A DNA stretch of 54,145 nucleotides from a virus (Duplodnaviria > Caudoviricetes), in the IMG/VR virus record IMGVR_UViG_3300010366_000002, positions 1-54,145 of that record; one strand, given 5' to 3'. Every line of letters begins with the position of its first letter. Positions within the stretch are counted from its first letter, which is position 1. Under the pieces are notes generated by a model. It saw only the letters and a program-made list of their open reading frames with translations, did not search any database and was not told the origin of the DNA. Shown one piece after another: positions 1,420-49,213 of the stretch. The position numbers and the translations under genes were made by a program.

Positions 1420-1716
1420 TTGACGTCCTCCGCCAGGTAAACCAGGCGGATTCCCTACGTTGGCCCTCAACGCCCTGAGGGGAGACCTATGCAGTGTCTC
1501 TTACTTATCAGCGCTTCTCATCGCCCTGACGACCATGCCTGCGTCAAGCATGGGAAGAAGCATCTCGGTACGTCCGTATGGGCCAGCCAGCTCCAGGCTG
1601 TCGTTCAACTGGCGCGCGACGCATGCTTCATGTGCGTTCACTATTGCGGTATCGCTTTTACGCACAGTCCTGCACTGTGCAACCCGCAAACGATATTTGA
1701 AAGAGCACGGCACAAC
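1420..1716 (-). ncRNA. omegaRNA-like ncRNA A (predicted guide CTTTCTTAGTCCATGACCTC, 1419->1400)
   Basis: Extended -10 TGaTATAAT at 1731->1723; homologous to 39252-39560 at both ends. Confidence 0.7.
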
Positions 1717-3350: not shown

Positions 3351-3821
3351 AGTTTCCTCCAAGGGGACTGCCTCCTTTCGGTGGCAGAGGAATTGGAGGT
3401 TGAGCCCCACGGGCTCAACAGATGTTCAATGTTTGTTCACTGTTTGTTTAGGCTTTGTTCACTGTTTCAAACCGTCCTACTATGCTACACTTTCCTCAAT
3501 ACGACCGTGTCAGGCATTCCAGCTTTGATCGCTGTCTGCCGCTTCAACACACGGTACGGCTCTTTCTAACATAACTTCGCGGGGTTGCTGGTCGTAGGGA
3601 CCAGCGTAAAAGTTGTGCCGCAAAGTAGAGAACCAATCCAGACAACCGACCGGCTTTGAGGCCGATGAGCAGGTGTCGCTGGTCAACCAGTCTGGGGCTC
3701 GGACGGAGCCTTTACGGCGTAACGTAGGGGTAGTAAACCCAAGCGTGCCGTAAGAAGCTGTTGTTAAAGTGACCTGCTTCGGCCAAAAGAAGCTGTCTGC
3801 TTGAGCTGACAGAGTCGTCAC
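3349..3821 (+). mobile_element. Non-autonomous IS200/IS605-family element C
   Basis: Target CCAT (3345-3348); GGGA at +16..+19 before the left-end hairpin CTGCC..GGCAG; right end GAAG-CTGTC..GACAG-AGTCG-TCAC; excision recreates an ATGA gene overlap. Confidence 0.9.
3498..3821 (+). ncRNA. omegaRNA-like ncRNA C (predicted guide GAGCACGACAGGCAGCCCGT, 3822-3841)
   Basis: TGcTACACT -10 at 3483-3491; 3' part GGCTCGGACGGAGCC-TTTACGGCGTAACG...CGTGCCGTAAGAAG resembles tnpB 3'-end RNAs. Confidence 0.7.
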
Positions 3822-29658: not shown

Positions 29659-29760
29659 TGCTATACTTCCTCGTGCAGCTAGGGTCTGCAGCCCGACAAG
29701 CCAGCACCTGTACTGGTTGCTGCACACATCTTTTACAGGTTCTAACCAAACAGGAGGTTA
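29659..29760 (+). promoter_or_regulatory. Extended -10 promoter and structured leader RNA of the HNH gene
   Basis: TGcTATACT 29659-29667; GTGCAGC...GCTGCAC stem 29673-29725 enclosing two hairpins. Confidence 0.6.
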
Positions 29761-29763
29761 GGA

Positions 29764-30321
29764 ATGAAAAACATCCCCCGTGTCTGTCAATATAGTCCCT
29801 GTAGGAAACCCTTTATGGTCTATCCCTCACAATTACGCAAAGGCGCAGGTATTTATTGTTCACGCGCCTGTATGTATGCGTCCTTCTCAAAACCAATTCC
29901 GCGTGTGTGTCGCCTTTGTCGTCGTGATTTCCTGTCCTACCCCGCTCAAATACAACGAGGAAACGCCCAGTACTGCTCTCGATATTGTTACGACAGCGCC
30001 AAACGGTTTGACCTCACGACTTTTTGGCAATGGGTCTCTACCTGTCTGCATGGAAAAGACTGTCCTTTTTGTTGCTGGCCGTGGAAACTCCCCTTAAAAA
30101 ACGGTTATGGCTATTTCCAGCTTGAGCGTATCCAATACTACGCCCATCGTACAGCCTGGGAGATTTGGCACAATCGGCCTATTCCCCATGCCTTATTTGT
30201 AGCTCATTACTGCCACAACCGCGCTTGCTGTAATCCAGACCATATTCACGCGGCAACCCCGAAAGAAAATATTGCCGATTCTATCCGTGATGGCCGTATG
30301 GGATGGCAGCAAGATCGTTAA
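29764..30321 (+). CDS. HNH (homing) endonuclease with Cys-rich N-terminal repeats
   Basis: YCSRAC/YCSRYC repeats; CWPWK..GYG..YAHR..HYCHNRACCNPDH...EN; inserted antisense in the tail module. Confidence 0.9.
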   Translation: MKNIPRVCQYSPCRKPFMVYPSQLRKGAGIYCSRACMYASFSKPIPRVCRLCRRDFLSYPAQIQRGNAQYCSRYCYDSAKRFDLTTFWQWVSTCLHGKDCPFCCWPWKLPLKNGYGYFQLERIQYYAHRTAWEIWHNRPIPHALFVAHYCHNRACCNPDHIHAATPKENIADSIRDGRMGWQQDR

Positions 30322-36397: not shown

Positions 36398-36469
36398 CAG
36401 AGGTGCGTCACATTCCTAGTGGCCGCCAGGATAGACGCCGATATGGAAAATTGTCTACGCCTATAATAC

Positions 36470-36846
36470 AAGTTTGTTCAAGGTTTTTCTATACCTTGTT
36501 TAGGCTTTGTTTACTGTTTCATGTTGTCCTACTGTGCTATACTTCTCCCTGTCTGTGGAGTAGATGGTGTCCATTGCCACAGACAGTTTTTGTTCCCTTC
36601 CAAGGCTCTTCGACAACACAGCGTAGGTGGTTGAGAGAGGCAGTCTCTCTCGTAAAACGTTGTACGCATAGCAAGAACCTCTCGTCAGTCCTGGAGCTTC
36701 TTGACGTTGCTCTAGGCGCGCCCAATGGCGGGGCGCTCAACAGGGTACGAGGCCCGGCCGACCGGGACCCACCTCAAGAACCTGAACCGGCAACTTCCAG
36801 GGACGGTCCCTGGAATCCGCCTCGTTCACGGGGCGGAGGATGTCAA
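36470..36846 (+). mobile_element. IS200/IS605-derived element D (promoter + omegaRNA-like RNA + right end; left end not found)
   Basis: Right end GAAT-CCGCCTCG-TTCA-CGGGGCGG-AGGATG-TCAA; promoter region homologous to C. Confidence 0.75.
36550..36846 (+). ncRNA. omegaRNA-like ncRNA D (predicted guide GTCTTGCCACACCACATCAA, 36847-36866)
   Basis: TGcTATACT -10 at 36535-36543; boxA-like motif and conserved stem-GTAAAA module. Confidence 0.65.
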
Positions 36847-36880: not shown

Positions 36881-37636
36881 TCAGGCATAGAGGGACCCCT
36901 GTTTTGGCTTCGACGATGGCAACGGCACCGGGAACAAATGCAGTTGCTGCGTCAAGACTTCCAAGCGCCGACAGGCATACTCAAAATAGGCGGGATTGAT
37001 TTCAATGCCTATAAACCCACGCTGCAACTGCAGCGCCGCGTATCCCGTCGTGCCCGAACCCATAAATGGATCAAGCACGACCTGTCCGGGTAAACTGGCC
37101 CGATTGACCAACCAGCGCATCATCCTAATGGGCTTGGCACAGGGATGCGCGTGCAGATTCGCATCATTGCCCGAGGTCTGAGCACAGGCATTGGGACGCG
37201 ATCCTTGACCAATGGCGAGATAGGGATCTTTCCCATAATAGAGAATCGGTGACATACACGTAAAGCCCCACCGGCTGCACCCCGTGCCGGCGGCGAAGAA
37301 AAAACAGCCAATATCATCGGCGGAGGGATAGCGCCCGAGATTCCGTACCCCTGATATCACCGCCATACAGGTAGCCAGATTCCGACACTGGGTCAGAATA
37401 GGCAGCACCACGTTCTCAAAATACGCGACTGTATCCTCATGTGCAAAGGTATCTGGACGGCGCGTACCCTTACGCTGCCCATTCCCGAGACGGCGCGAGC
37501 CCATTTTGCCTCGCAACTCCACTCCATAAGGCGGATCCGTAATGACCGAATCCACCGGCGCAAGCGTAGACACAATCTCCGCTGCATCGCCACAATAGAG
37601 CGTACAGGCACCTATCTGCTCCATCGTCCAACTCAA
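36881..37636 (-). CDS. DNA methyltransferase (N6-A/N4-C, beta class)
   Basis: VITDPPYG ... HPCAKP ... VLDPFMGSGTTG. Confidence 0.92.
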   Translation of the reverse strand: MSWTMEQIGACTLYCGDAAEIVSTLAPVDSVITDPPYGVELRGKMGSRRLGNGQRKGTRRPDTFAHEDTVAYFENVVLPILTQCRNLATCMAVISGVRNLGRYPSADDIGCFFFAAGTGCSRWGFTCMSPILYYGKDPYLAIGQGSRPNACAQTSGNDANLHAHPCAKPIRMMRWLVNRASLPGQVVLDPFMGSGTTGYAALQLQRGFIGIEINPAYFEYACRRLEVLTQQLHLFPVPLPSSKPKQGSLYA

Positions 37637-39104: not shown

Positions 39105-39560
39105 ATTTTCTCCAAGGGAGCTGCCGGCCTTCAGTCGGCAGGGGATTTGGAGGTTGAGCCCCACGGGCTTAACTCTTGTTCAAGGTCTGTTCAAGGTTTG
39201 TTCAGTCTTTGTTCACTGTTTCTCTTAGACATAGTGTGCTAGACTTTCAGACAGTATGCCTGCTCTTTCAAATATCGTTTGCGGGTTGCTGTTCGCAGGG
39301 AACAGCGTAAAAGCGATACCGCAAAGTTCGCACCATACGAGGTACTGCGTGGTCGTCTGGTTGTTTCAGCATATCGCTGGCCAGACATAAGACCATCCAT
39401 TCAGATGCCTCTTGCAGAGACTGTTGCTGTCTCTGTTGCGTCTGCTAGAAGGCTGGTCCTTTGGGGCAGACGTAAGTAAGAGTGATAGCATCTCACTCCC
39501 CTCAGGACGTTGAGGGCCAACCTGGGGAATCCGCCTGGTTTACCTGGCGGAGGACGTCAA
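39105..39560 (+). mobile_element. Non-autonomous IS200/IS605-family element B
   Basis: Target CCAC (39101-39104); GGAG before left-end hairpin CTGCCGGC-CTTCA-GTCGGCAG; right end GAAT...TCAA; precise excision restores the ORF. Confidence 0.92.
39252..39560 (+). ncRNA. omegaRNA-like ncRNA B (predicted guide GAGTTCCAGGTAGTGGTGAT, 39561-39580)
   Basis: TGcTAGACT -10 at 39237-39245; homologous to ncRNA A with compensatory changes. Confidence 0.7.
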
Positions 39561-39720
39561 GAGTTCCAGGTAGTGGTGATACTGCTGGCTGAATTGCGCT
39601 TGCAGCTGGGTGTAGCGGCGCTGGAGGTCCTCGTGGTGTCTGGTTAGGGCGCCCAGGCGTCCGCGCAGATCCTGGTTGTCGGCCTGGAGCGCTTGGACAT
39701 CCATCGATCGTCCTGCATCG

Positions 39721-46740: not shown

Positions 46741-48963
46741 TTAAAACAGCCGTTGCTGATTTTGACTCTCTAGCGCCCGTGCCAGGTTCTTGATCCCGGT
46801 TGCCGCATAGCTCGCCTTCAGCTCACACCCCACAAAGTGACGGCCATGCTGCAAGGCGACAAACCCCGTCGAGCAAATGCCCGCGAAAGGGTCCAGAATA
46901 GTCTCATTGTGGTTACTCCATAGTCGAATACAACGCTCGATGACGCCAAGCTGTAGAGGGCATATATGCCTGTCATCTGCGGCTTCCCGTGCCTCAGCGG
47001 CGTTGAGCGTATCGGTTTCGTGGATGCCCCAGCCGGGCTCATCGTGGATGCCGTACCAGACGCCGTTGGCCCAACGGATCCAGGTTTCGTTATCGACATC
47101 GGGCTGAATGGGTACGGGATTGTCCCCCGGCTTGCGGAAGAAGAGGATATAGTCACACAGGGCAGGACGCAGCCAGGAGGCATCTTTCTTGAGCTGGCTA
47201 AAGGCCAGCCCTTTGCTGTGAATGCGTATGGCCTGGGCTTGGGGGTTTTTCGAGATGACGACCTCGCCATGATACAGCCAGCCCCACTGACTCATGGCGC
47301 GCACGGTCTCCCCGCGAAAGTCCTTGAGTCCGATCCAGCCATCACGCACCAGCATGGCCGGCACCTGGGAGACATGGATGGCTGCGTGGCGCCCTGGCAT
47401 GGTGACCCGCATGAGCTGGTCACTGACGTAGCGAAAATGCTGGAAGAAGGTCTCCGTATCCTGCGAGTTGCCCAGGTCACGCTCGGTCGGCGAATATTGG
47501 TACAAACTTAAAAACGGGGGACTGAAGACCGTGAGTCCGACACTGGCATCGGCGATATACGGTAAGCCATCGACACAATCGCCCTGGTACAGGTCCCACG
47601 AGGGACCGGTAAAATGCTGGACGTTGCCCACGGCCACAGGCGTCTGGGCGTGCTGTAACTCTGCCTGTTCATAGTGCTGCATATGGGTAATCATATTCTT
47701 CACCATGCCTTCTGCTTGCCGTTCCTTGCGTTGGATATTGTCGAGAATCGGTTGTTCGTAGTCTGAGAGCACCAGATGCACGATGACTTCGTGGGTCTGC
47801 CCATAGCGCCAGAGACGGCGGATCGTTTGAAACCACGTTTCCCATGAATCGTTTAACCCGACAAAGATGGCTGTATGTGCATGTTGGAAATTCATCCCAA
47901 AGCCCGCTATTGCACTTTTGGTAAGCAGGATTCTGCTGGCGCCATCGACAAAACTGAGCAACTTCATCTCTTTCTCTGCGAGCGGCGTACTGCCGCGAAT
48001 TTCCACGATGCTCTGATCGCACAGCGCGTGTGCCAGAGCCGTTGATTCATCATTGAGTCCACACCACATGGTCACTGGCCCATCGGCATCCCGTGCTAAC
48101 TGCGCGGCCATCGCTACCCGTTCCGAGATCGTGCCGCGCCGGACCGCGCTACGATCCGTAATACCCTTCAGACCCATGGTCGGGAACAACTCCCCATCAC
48201 GGTGAAAATCGGCCTTGGCATAGTGCACCTTCAATGTGCGCGGGGGGAGTTGAAACGCCGTAGCATCGAACCCCAGATCTGCAGGCGACTGTAAGGCCAT
48301 GGCCCACGACGCCATCCACTGATAAAACGCCTCTGCCGCATGGCCGCGCAAGCGCCAGCCCTGATCATCATGCACGAAAAAGGTACTGAGCATATCGGGA
48401 CGCTTCATCACGCCGAGAAATTCAGCGTGATTGCCGATTTCCGCGATGTCATTGGGGGCAGGCGTCGCGGTGCAGCACAGGCGATAGGGAATATGGGTAA
48501 AGTGCGTGAGCAACTCTTCACGGGTTTTGCTAGTAATGTGCTTGATGCGGCTGCTTTCATCACACACGATGCCCGTGAAGGGAGCGTCATAGAAGTTGCG
48601 CATCATGTCGTAATTGGTGACCACGATGCGGCTCTCACCCATCTGGTCTGGGTGGCGGATGTAGGCGAGATCGCGCTGGAACTTCTGCCGTGCTTCGCGG
48701 ACCAGTTGATGCGTCACGGCCAGCGGCGCAAGGATGAGCACGAGGCCGGGAATGTGGTGCGCCCACTCCAACAACATGAGCCCCTTGCCTAATCCTGTGG
48801 AAGCGAAGAGCCCGGCCCGTCCCCGGCGCAGGGCCCAGCGGGTCAGGGCTTGCTGAAAGGGGTAGAGCACCGGGGAGAGGGCCTCCAGGGGCACCTCGAT
48901 CCCGGTGGGGGCATCGGTCAAGCGTTTGGTGCGCAGAAAGTCGAGATAGTCGGTATCAGGCAT
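46741..48963 (-). CDS. SNF2-like helicase fused to DNA methyltransferase
   Basis: STGLGKG, CDESS, TATPAPN, RRLWRYGQ; FSPPF, HICPLQL, ILDPFAGICSTG. Confidence 0.88.
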   Translation of the reverse strand: MPDTDYLDFLRTKRLTDAPTGIEVPLEALSPVLYPFQQALTRWALRRGRAGLFASTGLGKGLMLLEWAHHIPGLVLILAPLAVTHQLVREARQKFQRDLAYIRHPDQMGESRIVVTNYDMMRNFYDAPFTGIVCDESSRIKHITSKTREELLTHFTHIPYRLCCTATPAPNDIAEIGNHAEFLGVMKRPDMLSTFFVHDDQGWRLRGHAAEAFYQWMASWAMALQSPADLGFDATAFQLPPRTLKVHYAKADFHRDGELFPTMGLKGITDRSAVRRGTISERVAMAAQLARDADGPVTMWCGLNDESTALAHALCDQSIVEIRGSTPLAEKEMKLLSFVDGASRILLTKSAIAGFGMNFQHAHTAIFVGLNDSWETWFQTIRRLWRYGQTHEVIVHLVLSDYEQPILDNIQRKERQAEGMVKNMITHMQHYEQAELQHAQTPVAVGNVQHFTGPSWDLYQGDCVDGLPYIADASVGLTVFSPPFLSLYQYSPTERDLGNSQDTETFFQHFRYVSDQLMRVTMPGRHAAIHVSQVPAMLVRDGWIGLKDFRGETVRAMSQWGWLYHGEVVISKNPQAQAIRIHSKGLAFSQLKKDASWLRPALCDYILFFRKPGDNPVPIQPDVDNETWIRWANGVWYGIHDEPGWGIHETDTLNAAEAREAADDRHICPLQLGVIERCIRLWSNHNETILDPFAGICSTGFVALQHGRHFVGCELKASYAATGIKNLARALESQNQQRLF

Positions 48964-49213
48964 CAGGTGGTGTCCTTTCATCTGTCGTGCTGCAAAGATA
49001 ATCCAAGGAGAGCCCTAAGAGTTCAGCGATGACGGCTAAACGCTCAGCGGAGACGGACTGCGAGCCCGTTTCCAGTCGGCTGATGACCGCAAAACTCACC
49101 CCAGCCTTGCGGGCTAACTGGTACTGAGTGAGTCCGAGCCGTCGACGCACATGCTGCACCCGTTCGCCGATGAGTGGATTAATCGGTGTTCCTGGTCGTG
49201 CCGTGGTGACCAT
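48956..49213 (-). CDS. XRE-family HTH transcriptional regulator
   Basis: IGERVQHVRRRLGLTQYQLARKAGVSFAVISRLETG. Confidence 0.88.
   Translation of the reverse strand: MVTTARPGTPINPLIGERVQHVRRRLGLTQYQLARKAGVSFAVISRLETGSQSVSAERLAVIAELLGLSLDYLCSTTDERTPPDA

Follow-up and report, generated by a model that had tools for sequence, protein, structure and literature searches.

A boxA-like element joined to a covarying hairpin domain in tnpB-less IS200/IS605-type elements of a P22-like phage and of bacterial genomes

The stretch of viral DNA analysed here (the window; 54,145 nucleotides) is the whole IMG/VR virus record IMGVR_UViG_3300010366_000002, which has direct terminal repeats and is the complete genome of a P22-like phage; DNA methylases and a primase are annotated in it beside the P22-like portal, coat, scaffold and tail-fibre-like genes. 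It carries four gene-less elements of the IS200/IS605 type, each ~430–470 bp long, namely element A (1420–1854) on the minus strand and elements B (39106–39560, left boundary approximate), C (3353–3821) and D (36413–36846) on the plus strand. Each contains one copy of a short structured module and is built in the order left-end hairpin, -10-like box, module, structured body and a right end of the omega-RNA type finishing in GTCAA or GTCAC. The module starts with a sequence resembling the boxA of rRNA (rrn) operons, continues as a covarying hairpin domain and stands where related elements carry the open reading frame (ORF) of tnpB. A profile search of the whole window found no TnpB TNB domain, indicating a phage without tnpB.

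The module had been noticed in a first-pass annotation of the sequence, which reported an inner hairpin of differing but fully paired sequence in each of the four elements. All four strings were found at or beside the positions reported, as GCTGTTC-GCAGG-GAACAGC in B (39288–39306, plus strand), GCACAGT-GCAGG-ACTGTGC in A (inside 1645–1697, minus strand), GCTGGTC-GTAGG-GACCAGC in C (inside 3570–3622, plus strand) and GAGAGAG-GCAGT-CTCTCTC in D (inside 36616–36668, plus strand), with GTT on the 5′ side and GTAAAA on the 3′ side in 4/4 copies. A covariance model of the 53-nt core (R1), derived from an alignment (A3) of 42 family members including the four window copies, was run over both strands of the window with filters off and gave exactly four matches (50.7–62.3 bits, E 8e-12 to 4e-15), at 39271–39323 (+), 1645–1697 (-), 36616–36668 (+) and 3570–3622 (+); the fifth-best match reached only E 0.46, confirming that the module is present four times. 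Searches against Rfam 15, including its small ribozymes and HgcC, returned nothing at or above gathering score for the module or the scaffolds in the window or in 14 loci scanned, and at relaxed thresholds no ribozyme family was recovered for B (E up to 10) or for 10 loci (E up to 0.5), in agreement with the earlier view that the domain belongs to no known RNA family.

Two helices define the fold. P3, the 7-bp inner hairpin, is paired in 97.6% of cells over the 42 members, and six of its seven pairs change on both sides; members entered the family for at least five of six paired positions in P3, so this pairing was selected for. P1, also of 7 bp, was not used in choosing members, and corresponds to what had been described as a crossing pairing. 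Its covariation is strong across the family, but the registers given earlier for C and D differ from that of the family: P1 is TATCGTT/AGCGATA in A and B (in B, 39273–39279 with 39312–39318), CATAACT/AGTTGTG in C, one base off the ATAACTT/AAGTTGT first proposed, and ACAGCGT/ACGTTGT in D, not ACAAC/GTTGT. After register correction, all seven pairs form in 40 of 56 distinct copies, six in 11 and five in 5, with a mean of 6.63/7 pairs vs 4.98 (standard deviation 0.09, maximum 5.23) when 3′ strands were dealt to other copies, and 36 different 5′ strands occur across the 56 copies. G-U cells outnumber A-C cells in P1 and P3 (51 vs 8), and the fold therefore belongs to this strand, as the proposal of a distinct folded RNA domain implied. 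Inside P1 lie a conserved internal loop with unequal sides (NNNNGGUU / GUAAA) and P3, which in B is flanked by invariant GGTT and GTAAAA; near-invariant letters are GGUU before P3, GUAAA after P3 and (C/A)CG after P1, and the P3 loop reads GNAGN in 52/54 copies. P1/P3 is a real and widespread RNA domain.

The conserved, covarying module announced by the first-pass annotation is thus real, whereas the pseudoknot attributed to it is unproven. The outer stem GCGG/CCGC on which the pseudoknot depends, here called P2, occurs in A, B and C (TTGCGG/CCGCAA in A and B, GCGG/CCGC in C; as TGCGG at 39280–39284 facing CCGCA at 39319–39323 in B, crossing P1) and lacks family-wide covariation, its best complementary run averaging 3.32 vs 3.25 in permuted sets, with 109/500 permutations reaching the observed value and 49% of cells paired in a fixed register. 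RNAalifold applied to six close relatives predicted P1 and P3 and not P2, and a full P1 together with P2 looks sterically awkward because no linker separates their 3′ strands. Thermodynamic folding of the four modules had little power (z-scores only -0.75 to -1.97), the minimum free energy structure alternating between P1 and P2.

Directly before P1, and always adjoining it, lies a box of 12–14 bases that the first-pass annotation had missed, and which resembles the rrn-type boxA. The available text of a 2026 mBio paper (PMC13753749) gives the boxA consensus as UGCUCUUUAACA for E. coli and AUGAUCUUUGAAA for Bacillus, and places boxA also upstream of suhB and of CRISPR operons. The first 8 of 12 bases of the box in B (TGCTCTTTCAAA, 39261–39272) equal the E. 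coli consensus as given there, and at least 8/12 identities to it are found in 45/56 distinct copies vs 62/5000 random 18-mers of the window. Within the window, the box reads TGCTCTTTCAAA in A (1698–1709) and B, GGCTCTTTCTAA in C (3558–3569) and GGCTCTTCGACAAC in D (36604–36617), and further variants in the family are GGCTCTTTAACAAC, CGTTCTTTGAAAAC and CGTTCTTTGACAAC. boxA-like sequences resembling the box of the elements were also read by eye in the rRNA leaders of three host genomes, giving GGTCCTTGAAAACTGAACA beside an element box CGTTCTTTGAAAACTGGACA in a Bacillota genome (G003), GCAGGTTAACAAC beside GGCAGCTTAAAAAC in a Chloroflexota genome (G002), and TGCAGCTTAACAG in a second Chloroflexota genome (G001), whose element box (GGCTTTTTAACAAC) is only partly alike. 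The two Chloroflexota leaders share an unusual GCAG(C/G)TTAAC, with which the element box GGCAGCTTAAAAAC was compared. In these 16S leaders (L207 1440–1470; L229) the sequence runs GCAG(C/G)TTAACA and then AGAAGAG; the latter is reminiscent of the AAGAGAG of the elements, and the two together may constitute a Chloroflexota boxA/boxC pair.

The box core can also pair with a purine box, AAGAGAG, found downstream in most subfamilies. This candidate helix, P0, forms 5.0/6 pairs vs 4.71 in permuted sets (standard deviation 0.07), a value reached by 0/500 permutations, with the reservation that kinship among copies inflates such statistics; covarying examples are CATCTT/AAGATG, CTCATT/AATGAG and CCCTTT/AAGGGG, and an unrestricted best-stem search for a closing helix did not discriminate (4/57 at p up to 0.05). 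In A and B only 4/6 P0 pairs form. That the box does not vary among the six phage copies of A/B type, even with a best downstream partner offering only these 4/6 pairs, favours a sequence-specific reader. RNAalifold in addition pairs the core GCUCU with a 3′ GGAGGACG by the guide in all six phage-type RNAs (alignment A6 columns 10–14 with 306–311; in B, 39262–39266 with ~39551–39556), which would join the 5′ and 3′ ends; as all the columns concerned are invariant, this pairing is uninformative. The first-pass annotation had offered a processing ribozyme, a nuclease-resistance element or a protein-binding site, and because the module begins with an rrn-type boxA, the last of these, as a NusB/NusE site, is the best founded.

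The surroundings of the module are most easily followed in B. Its left-end subterminal hairpin, CTGCCGGCC-TTC-AGTCGGCAG followed by GGGATTTGGAGG, lies at 39121–39141 (+), and hairpin plus GGRATNNGGAGG recur in A, C and bacterial copies. In A, B and C the hairpin and GGRATNNGGAGG are followed by a second hairpin and the -10-like box; the second hairpin of B (GTTGAGCCCCACGGGCTTAAC, 39153–39173) is kept in C, and a different paired sequence takes its place in A and in the copies at L036. Four TGTTYA repeats spaced at 11 bp then precede the -10-like box. By pattern count the window holds seven overlapping matches of this type vs 0.30 expected, all upstream of B, C and D, where three to four are phased at 11 bp (39177–39215 in B, 3423–3461 in C, 36497–36513 in D; A has none); they also occur at the viral locus L005 and look like possible operator or activator sites. 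The -10-like box of B, TAGACT preceded by TGTGC (39240–39245), is a predicted promoter element with kept spacing: TATAAT, TATACT or TAGACT stands 15–17 nt (hexamer end to G) upstream of GCTCTTT in 6/6 A/B-type copies, and across the family -10-like boxes lie 6–18 nt upstream of boxA in many copies. It is from these boxes that the module is predicted to lie at the 5′ end of an RNA.

Downstream of the module, 190–250 nt of non-coding sequence end in a hairpin and GGAGGAYGTCAA (A, B, D) or CAGAGTCGTCAC (C). In B this part comprises a structured RNA body, the predicted guide-RNA scaffold region (39324–39525), for which RNAalifold on six relatives gave 82 pairs, 39 of them with compensatory changes, and the right end GGAATCCGCC-hairpin-GGCGGAGGACGTCAA (39526–39560), of the type found at TnpB omega-RNA 3′ ends and present in three copies in the window, including 1420–1454 in A and 36812–36846 in D. 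The right end of C, GAAGCTGTCTG-hairpin-CAGAGTCGTCAC to 3821, is different, its GTCAC type being common to most bacterial copies, and D has a degenerate left end. Among six A/B-type elements from four viral records, similarity extends from near TTYCTCC-AGGG exactly to GTCAA and the flanks diverge at once; a CCAYA-like motif was read by eye near the left boundaries. By analogy with TnpB systems, the 20 bases after B (39561–39580) would occupy the guide position. With up to 3 mismatches allowed, this flank had no match in the window other than itself, and none of the guide-position flanks had a self-target in the window at ≤3 mismatches, the flank of C having been taken at the wrong place (its true right end is 3821); a 24-mer of the right flank of B found no empty site in the viral contig collection.

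The relation to tnpB is clearest in G001, where elements with the module and a canonical element (L192) with a 356-amino-acid tnpB ORF between left end and scaffold are alike in the left end (96% over 57 bases), in the sequence following the left hairpin (CCCTCCTTTCA...) and in the guide-RNA scaffold (84% over 69 bases). That genome contains 47 copies of the scaffold motif, 21 of them ~95–130 nt beyond a module (accounting for 21 of its 27 modules) and at least 16 immediately downstream of a listed TNB hit. Left end, promoter region and scaffold thus occur there in two combinations, with tnpB or with the module, which bears out the earlier suggestion that the module replaces the ORF. That the module might be a part of canonical tnpB elements was rejected, R1 finding no match in 12 tnpB loci and 5 tnpA loci. 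Searched for in the genome collection, the phage-type right end matched once, in a metagenome-assembled genome (MAG; L209) of Chloroflexota, where it lies at the 3′ end of a tnpB ORF; this hints at a possible host phylum. At the viral locus L023 (6600–8230, minus strand) a gene-less element adjoins a complete tnpB element whose 3′ end is also of the GAGAAGCC-hairpin-GGAGTGTCAC type, and past the latter lies a further orphan right-end-like hairpin with GTCATCAC, making a nest of three related ends. Taken at the level of sequence, these comparisons show the elements to be tnpB-less IS200/IS605 derivatives that keep the omega-RNA scaffold and carry one folded leader in the place of the ORF.

The family is widespread in bacteria and not private to the phage, a point that the first-pass annotation had also missed. 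Scanning the viral and genome collections with a 15-base pattern recovered 158 loci, 44 with the paired hairpin; three of these, which have none of the flanking features, were judged to be chance matches, and the 41 real loci lie on 14 viral and 27 bacterial contigs. Among the titles listed, the bacterial contigs belong to Chloroflexota (many), Acidobacteriota, Planctomycetota, Bacillota, Nitrospirota, a Fretibacterium and an Acetobacteraceae MAG, and the module occurs in at least six bacterial phyla with up to 27 copies per genome. Modules recognised by R1, TNB hits and Y1 transposase hits number 27, 134 and 52 in G001, 3, 0 and 1 in G002, 5, 7 and 5 in G003, 2, 9 and 7 in G004, and 27, 49 and 4 in G005. 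In 150 other genomes of the phylum of G001 no R1 match was found under strict filters that scored only 38 candidates per genome, and either the family is patchy or this test was insensitive.

Copies within one genome have the whole stretch in common from a left boundary beside a CCAT-like motif to GAGCCGTCAC, and the flanks outside it are unrelated. A strict script placed a hairpin and a TCAM right end 3′ of the module in 27/52 copies vs 1/52 on the reverse complement; a permissive one gave 50 hits among 53 copies with at least 150 nt downstream, several of them misplaced as judged by eye, and the 10 copies displayed for G001 all have their right end no more than ~175 nt from the module. We rejected a fixed protein partner next door, as only two of the 36 neighbouring ORFs scanned are tnpB (L023, L125) and the rest belong to unrelated housekeeping families or have no hit. 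An rRNA operon leader was likewise rejected, because the 14 bacterial loci scanned contain no rRNA. One copy (L164, 62–290) lies directly upstream of a purine riboswitch (290–391, 78.5 bits), and a read-through transcript would therefore run into the riboswitch.

Within the phage world, GenBank phage isolates gave no match to element B. Among four other viral records only one (G159) shares a portal gene with the window, and a distant one (34–39% identical); because the records with A/B-type copies have no common close portal, the elements are spread among unrelated phages. Other features of the window include an Rfam int-alpA RNA (29672–29739, plus strand; 41.5 bits, above its gathering score) directly upstream of an HNH endonuclease ORF (29764–30321), an ORF on the minus strand (46741–48981) that fuses a SNF2-type helicase to an N6/N4 DNA methylase domain, and a second methylase ORF (36881–37636) right after element D.

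We give roughly even odds (a probability of about 0.5) to the reading that each copy is the leader of a stand-alone omega-RNA gene on a tnpB-less, PATE-like IS200/IS605 transposon, acting as a Nus-factor boxA leader for an untranslated guide RNA. The parent transposon would produce its guide RNA as the 3′ tail of a translated tnpB mRNA; with the loss of the ORF the transcript, presumably started from the promoter region inherited from that parent, would become untranslated and exposed to Rho. A leader of ~65–110 nt comprising boxA, P1, the internal loop and P3 would then recruit NusB/NusE (S10) to RNA polymerase through boxA, as in rRNA operons and some CRISPR arrays, so that the polymerase might pass the scaffold and right end into the flank, where the DNA following GTCAA/GTCAC would serve as guide. 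P1/P3 would be the conserved partner of boxA, serving perhaps as a 5′ cap, as a clamp for folding or as a site for a protein, and TnpB from full-length host copies would take up the completed RNA in trans, the phage encoding none.

Several points weigh against this reading. The predicted element RNA is only ~190–330 nt, short for a need of antitermination, and its start and promoter are inferred from sequence, a sigma-70 scan upstream of B having found no full promoter. In C and D the -10-like box lies ~60–80 nt upstream of boxA, and in D a long hairpin (CTGTCTGTGG...CCACAGACAG, 36553–36595, plus strand) followed by TTTTT stands between the two; it is odd for an antitermination signal to be preceded by a structure resembling a terminator (the terminator scan did not list this hairpin, its loop being > 8). 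Because the boxA core can pair with the AAGAGAG-like box, the shared boxA letters could in part represent one strand of a helix, and NusB would not bind boxA in paired form. The rRNA leader box of G001 matches the boxA of its own elements only in part, and the role of P1/P3 is not explained by boxA. Finally, G002, the genome of L083, has its three modules with no TNB hit and a single weak Y1 hit; it is a MAG of unspecified completeness, and either the assembly is incomplete or the elements outlive their helpers.

Among other explanations, the module could be a 5′ processing or protection device, that is, a self-cleaving ribozyme or a fold blocking 5′-to-3′ or endonucleolytic decay, which would set or stabilise the 5′ terminus of a guide RNA now deprived of its upstream mRNA. 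We consider this unlikely while granting it some weight: the conserved unpaired letters (GGUU, GUAAA, GNAGN) by covarying helices are typical of catalytic or tertiary folds, in many copies the predicted 5′ end coincides with the module or lies close to it, and the order P1, P2, P3, P1′, P2′ in A, B and C is reminiscent of nested double-pseudoknot ribozymes, but the Rfam searches yielded no ribozyme at gathering or relaxed thresholds, the crossing helix P2 is not supported, and boxA and its likeness to host rRNA leaders are left unexplained. Somewhat less probable still is that the module adds a scaffold domain to the guide RNA, one that touches TnpB or another part of the RNA and replaces the part of the omega-RNA lying within the tnpB ORF, the GCUCUUU box then being one strand of the closing helix P0 and not a NusB site. 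The covariation signal of P0 and the GCUCU/GGAGGACG pairing of the phage-type RNAs (the latter in invariant columns) would agree with this; against it, the same module accompanies differing scaffolds and right ends (GTCAA, GTCAC and GTTGAC types), which different TnpB lineages would read, A and B make only 4/6 P0 pairs, and the unpaired part of the box (UUUAACAAC / UUUGAAAAC) is also conserved and resembles host rRNA leaders.

Two further proposals appear very improbable. The hairpins might act in single-stranded DNA during TnpA-mediated peel-and-paste transposition and not as RNA, given that IS200/IS605 transposases read DNA hairpins on one strand (according to the accessible text of PMC10055086) and that the tolerance of G-T on one strand fits top-strand DNA as well as RNA. 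However, the elements already have left- and right-end hairpins of one common type apart from the module, which is absent from canonical tnpB elements bearing these ends, and boxA is an RNA signal. Alternatively, the phage might have domesticated the elements, the phased TGTTYA repeats making them phage-regulated RNAs whose read-through is antisense to convergent genes; A, B and D are indeed convergent with the next ORFs and point into the 3′ ends of these neighbours, the repeats occur in the window only upstream of B, C and D (and at one other viral copy), and no terminator-like site follows B. Yet elements of this architecture are also scattered through bacterial genomes, next to unrelated housekeeping genes, A/B-type copies occur in viral records without a common close portal, as expected of a selfish element, and the guide-position flanks match nothing else in the window; we give domestication scarcely any credence.

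If the copies are indeed Nus-factor boxA leaders, they would bear on how guide-RNA-only relatives of TnpB systems get their RNA made without the nuclease mRNA, for which a boxA leader offers a directly testable mechanism. The conservation of one boxA leader in phages and in bacteria ranging from Bacillota to Chloroflexota suggests antitermination by Nus factors, which has been proposed for some CRISPR arrays too, and would extend the reach of boxA to mobile guide RNAs; the leader could also serve for omega-RNA expression. More tentatively, the boxA-hairpin leader may be a portable cassette that makes guide-RNA-only transposons transcriptionally self-sufficient through the rRNA antitermination machinery, the phage copies then being nuclease-free homing elements. 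Phage copies would in that case supply only the guide, host TnpB would cut element-free sites in co-infecting phage genomes and the elements would be copied in, opening a new path to super-Mendelian spread and perhaps also to competition between phages. Phages carrying several elements without a nuclease raise the question of the part played by host TnpB in homing between phage genomes, and the P1/P3 fold with its GGUU, GUAAA and GNAGN letters is an RNA domain worth probing.

Among known systems, lambdoid nut sites, which combine a boxA, a short spacer and a hairpin with a purine-rich pentaloop, are alike in these respects and in the P22-like phage setting. They differ in that the element loop is GNAGN with G or T as its fifth base in 48/54 copies, where boxB has A, in that the element hairpin lies inside a second helix, and in that the present family is mainly bacterial. 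The Rfam family HgcC has a 3′ hairpin and AGGAGGUCA that align to the right end of B, the same end that follows a tnpB ORF in L209; this match is weak (14.9 bits, E 0.54, far below the gathering score of 50), and the 5′ module has no counterpart in HgcC. Altae-Tran et al. in 2021 reportedly worked on stand-alone omega-RNAs.

The closest relatives in architecture are PATE-like elements, which according to the accessible text of a preprint (Meers et al. 2023, PMC10055086) have left and right subterminal hairpins, no protein gene and many copies, with a 3′ part homologous to the omega-RNA and right end of tnpB elements, and "often encode" omega-RNAs that would need TnpB in trans, TnpB and TnpA being presumed to act in trans. 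Neither a boxA nor a conserved RNA domain on the 5′ side is mentioned in that text; here, unlike in PATEs as described there, the tnpB ORF is replaced by one leader common to several phyla and omega-RNA types, and copies occur in phages. We found no paper describing such a boxA leader with TnpB, PATE or omega-RNA, in a search with thin coverage of subscription journals and with the supplements of OMEGA and PATE papers outside its scope. With the rrn-type boxA, as far as the available text of PMC13753749 describes it, the elements share a 12-nt box matching UGCUCUUUAACA or AUGAUCUUUGAAA and the likeness to the rRNA leaders of their hosts, and if the predicted starts hold they would also have it near the start of an untranslated transcript that is to be made at full length; they differ from it in that the box lies in a mobile element, is fused to a covarying hairpin domain and is partly pairable with a downstream purine box. 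Set against these systems, the kind of element is known, and its boxA-hairpin leader appears to be new.

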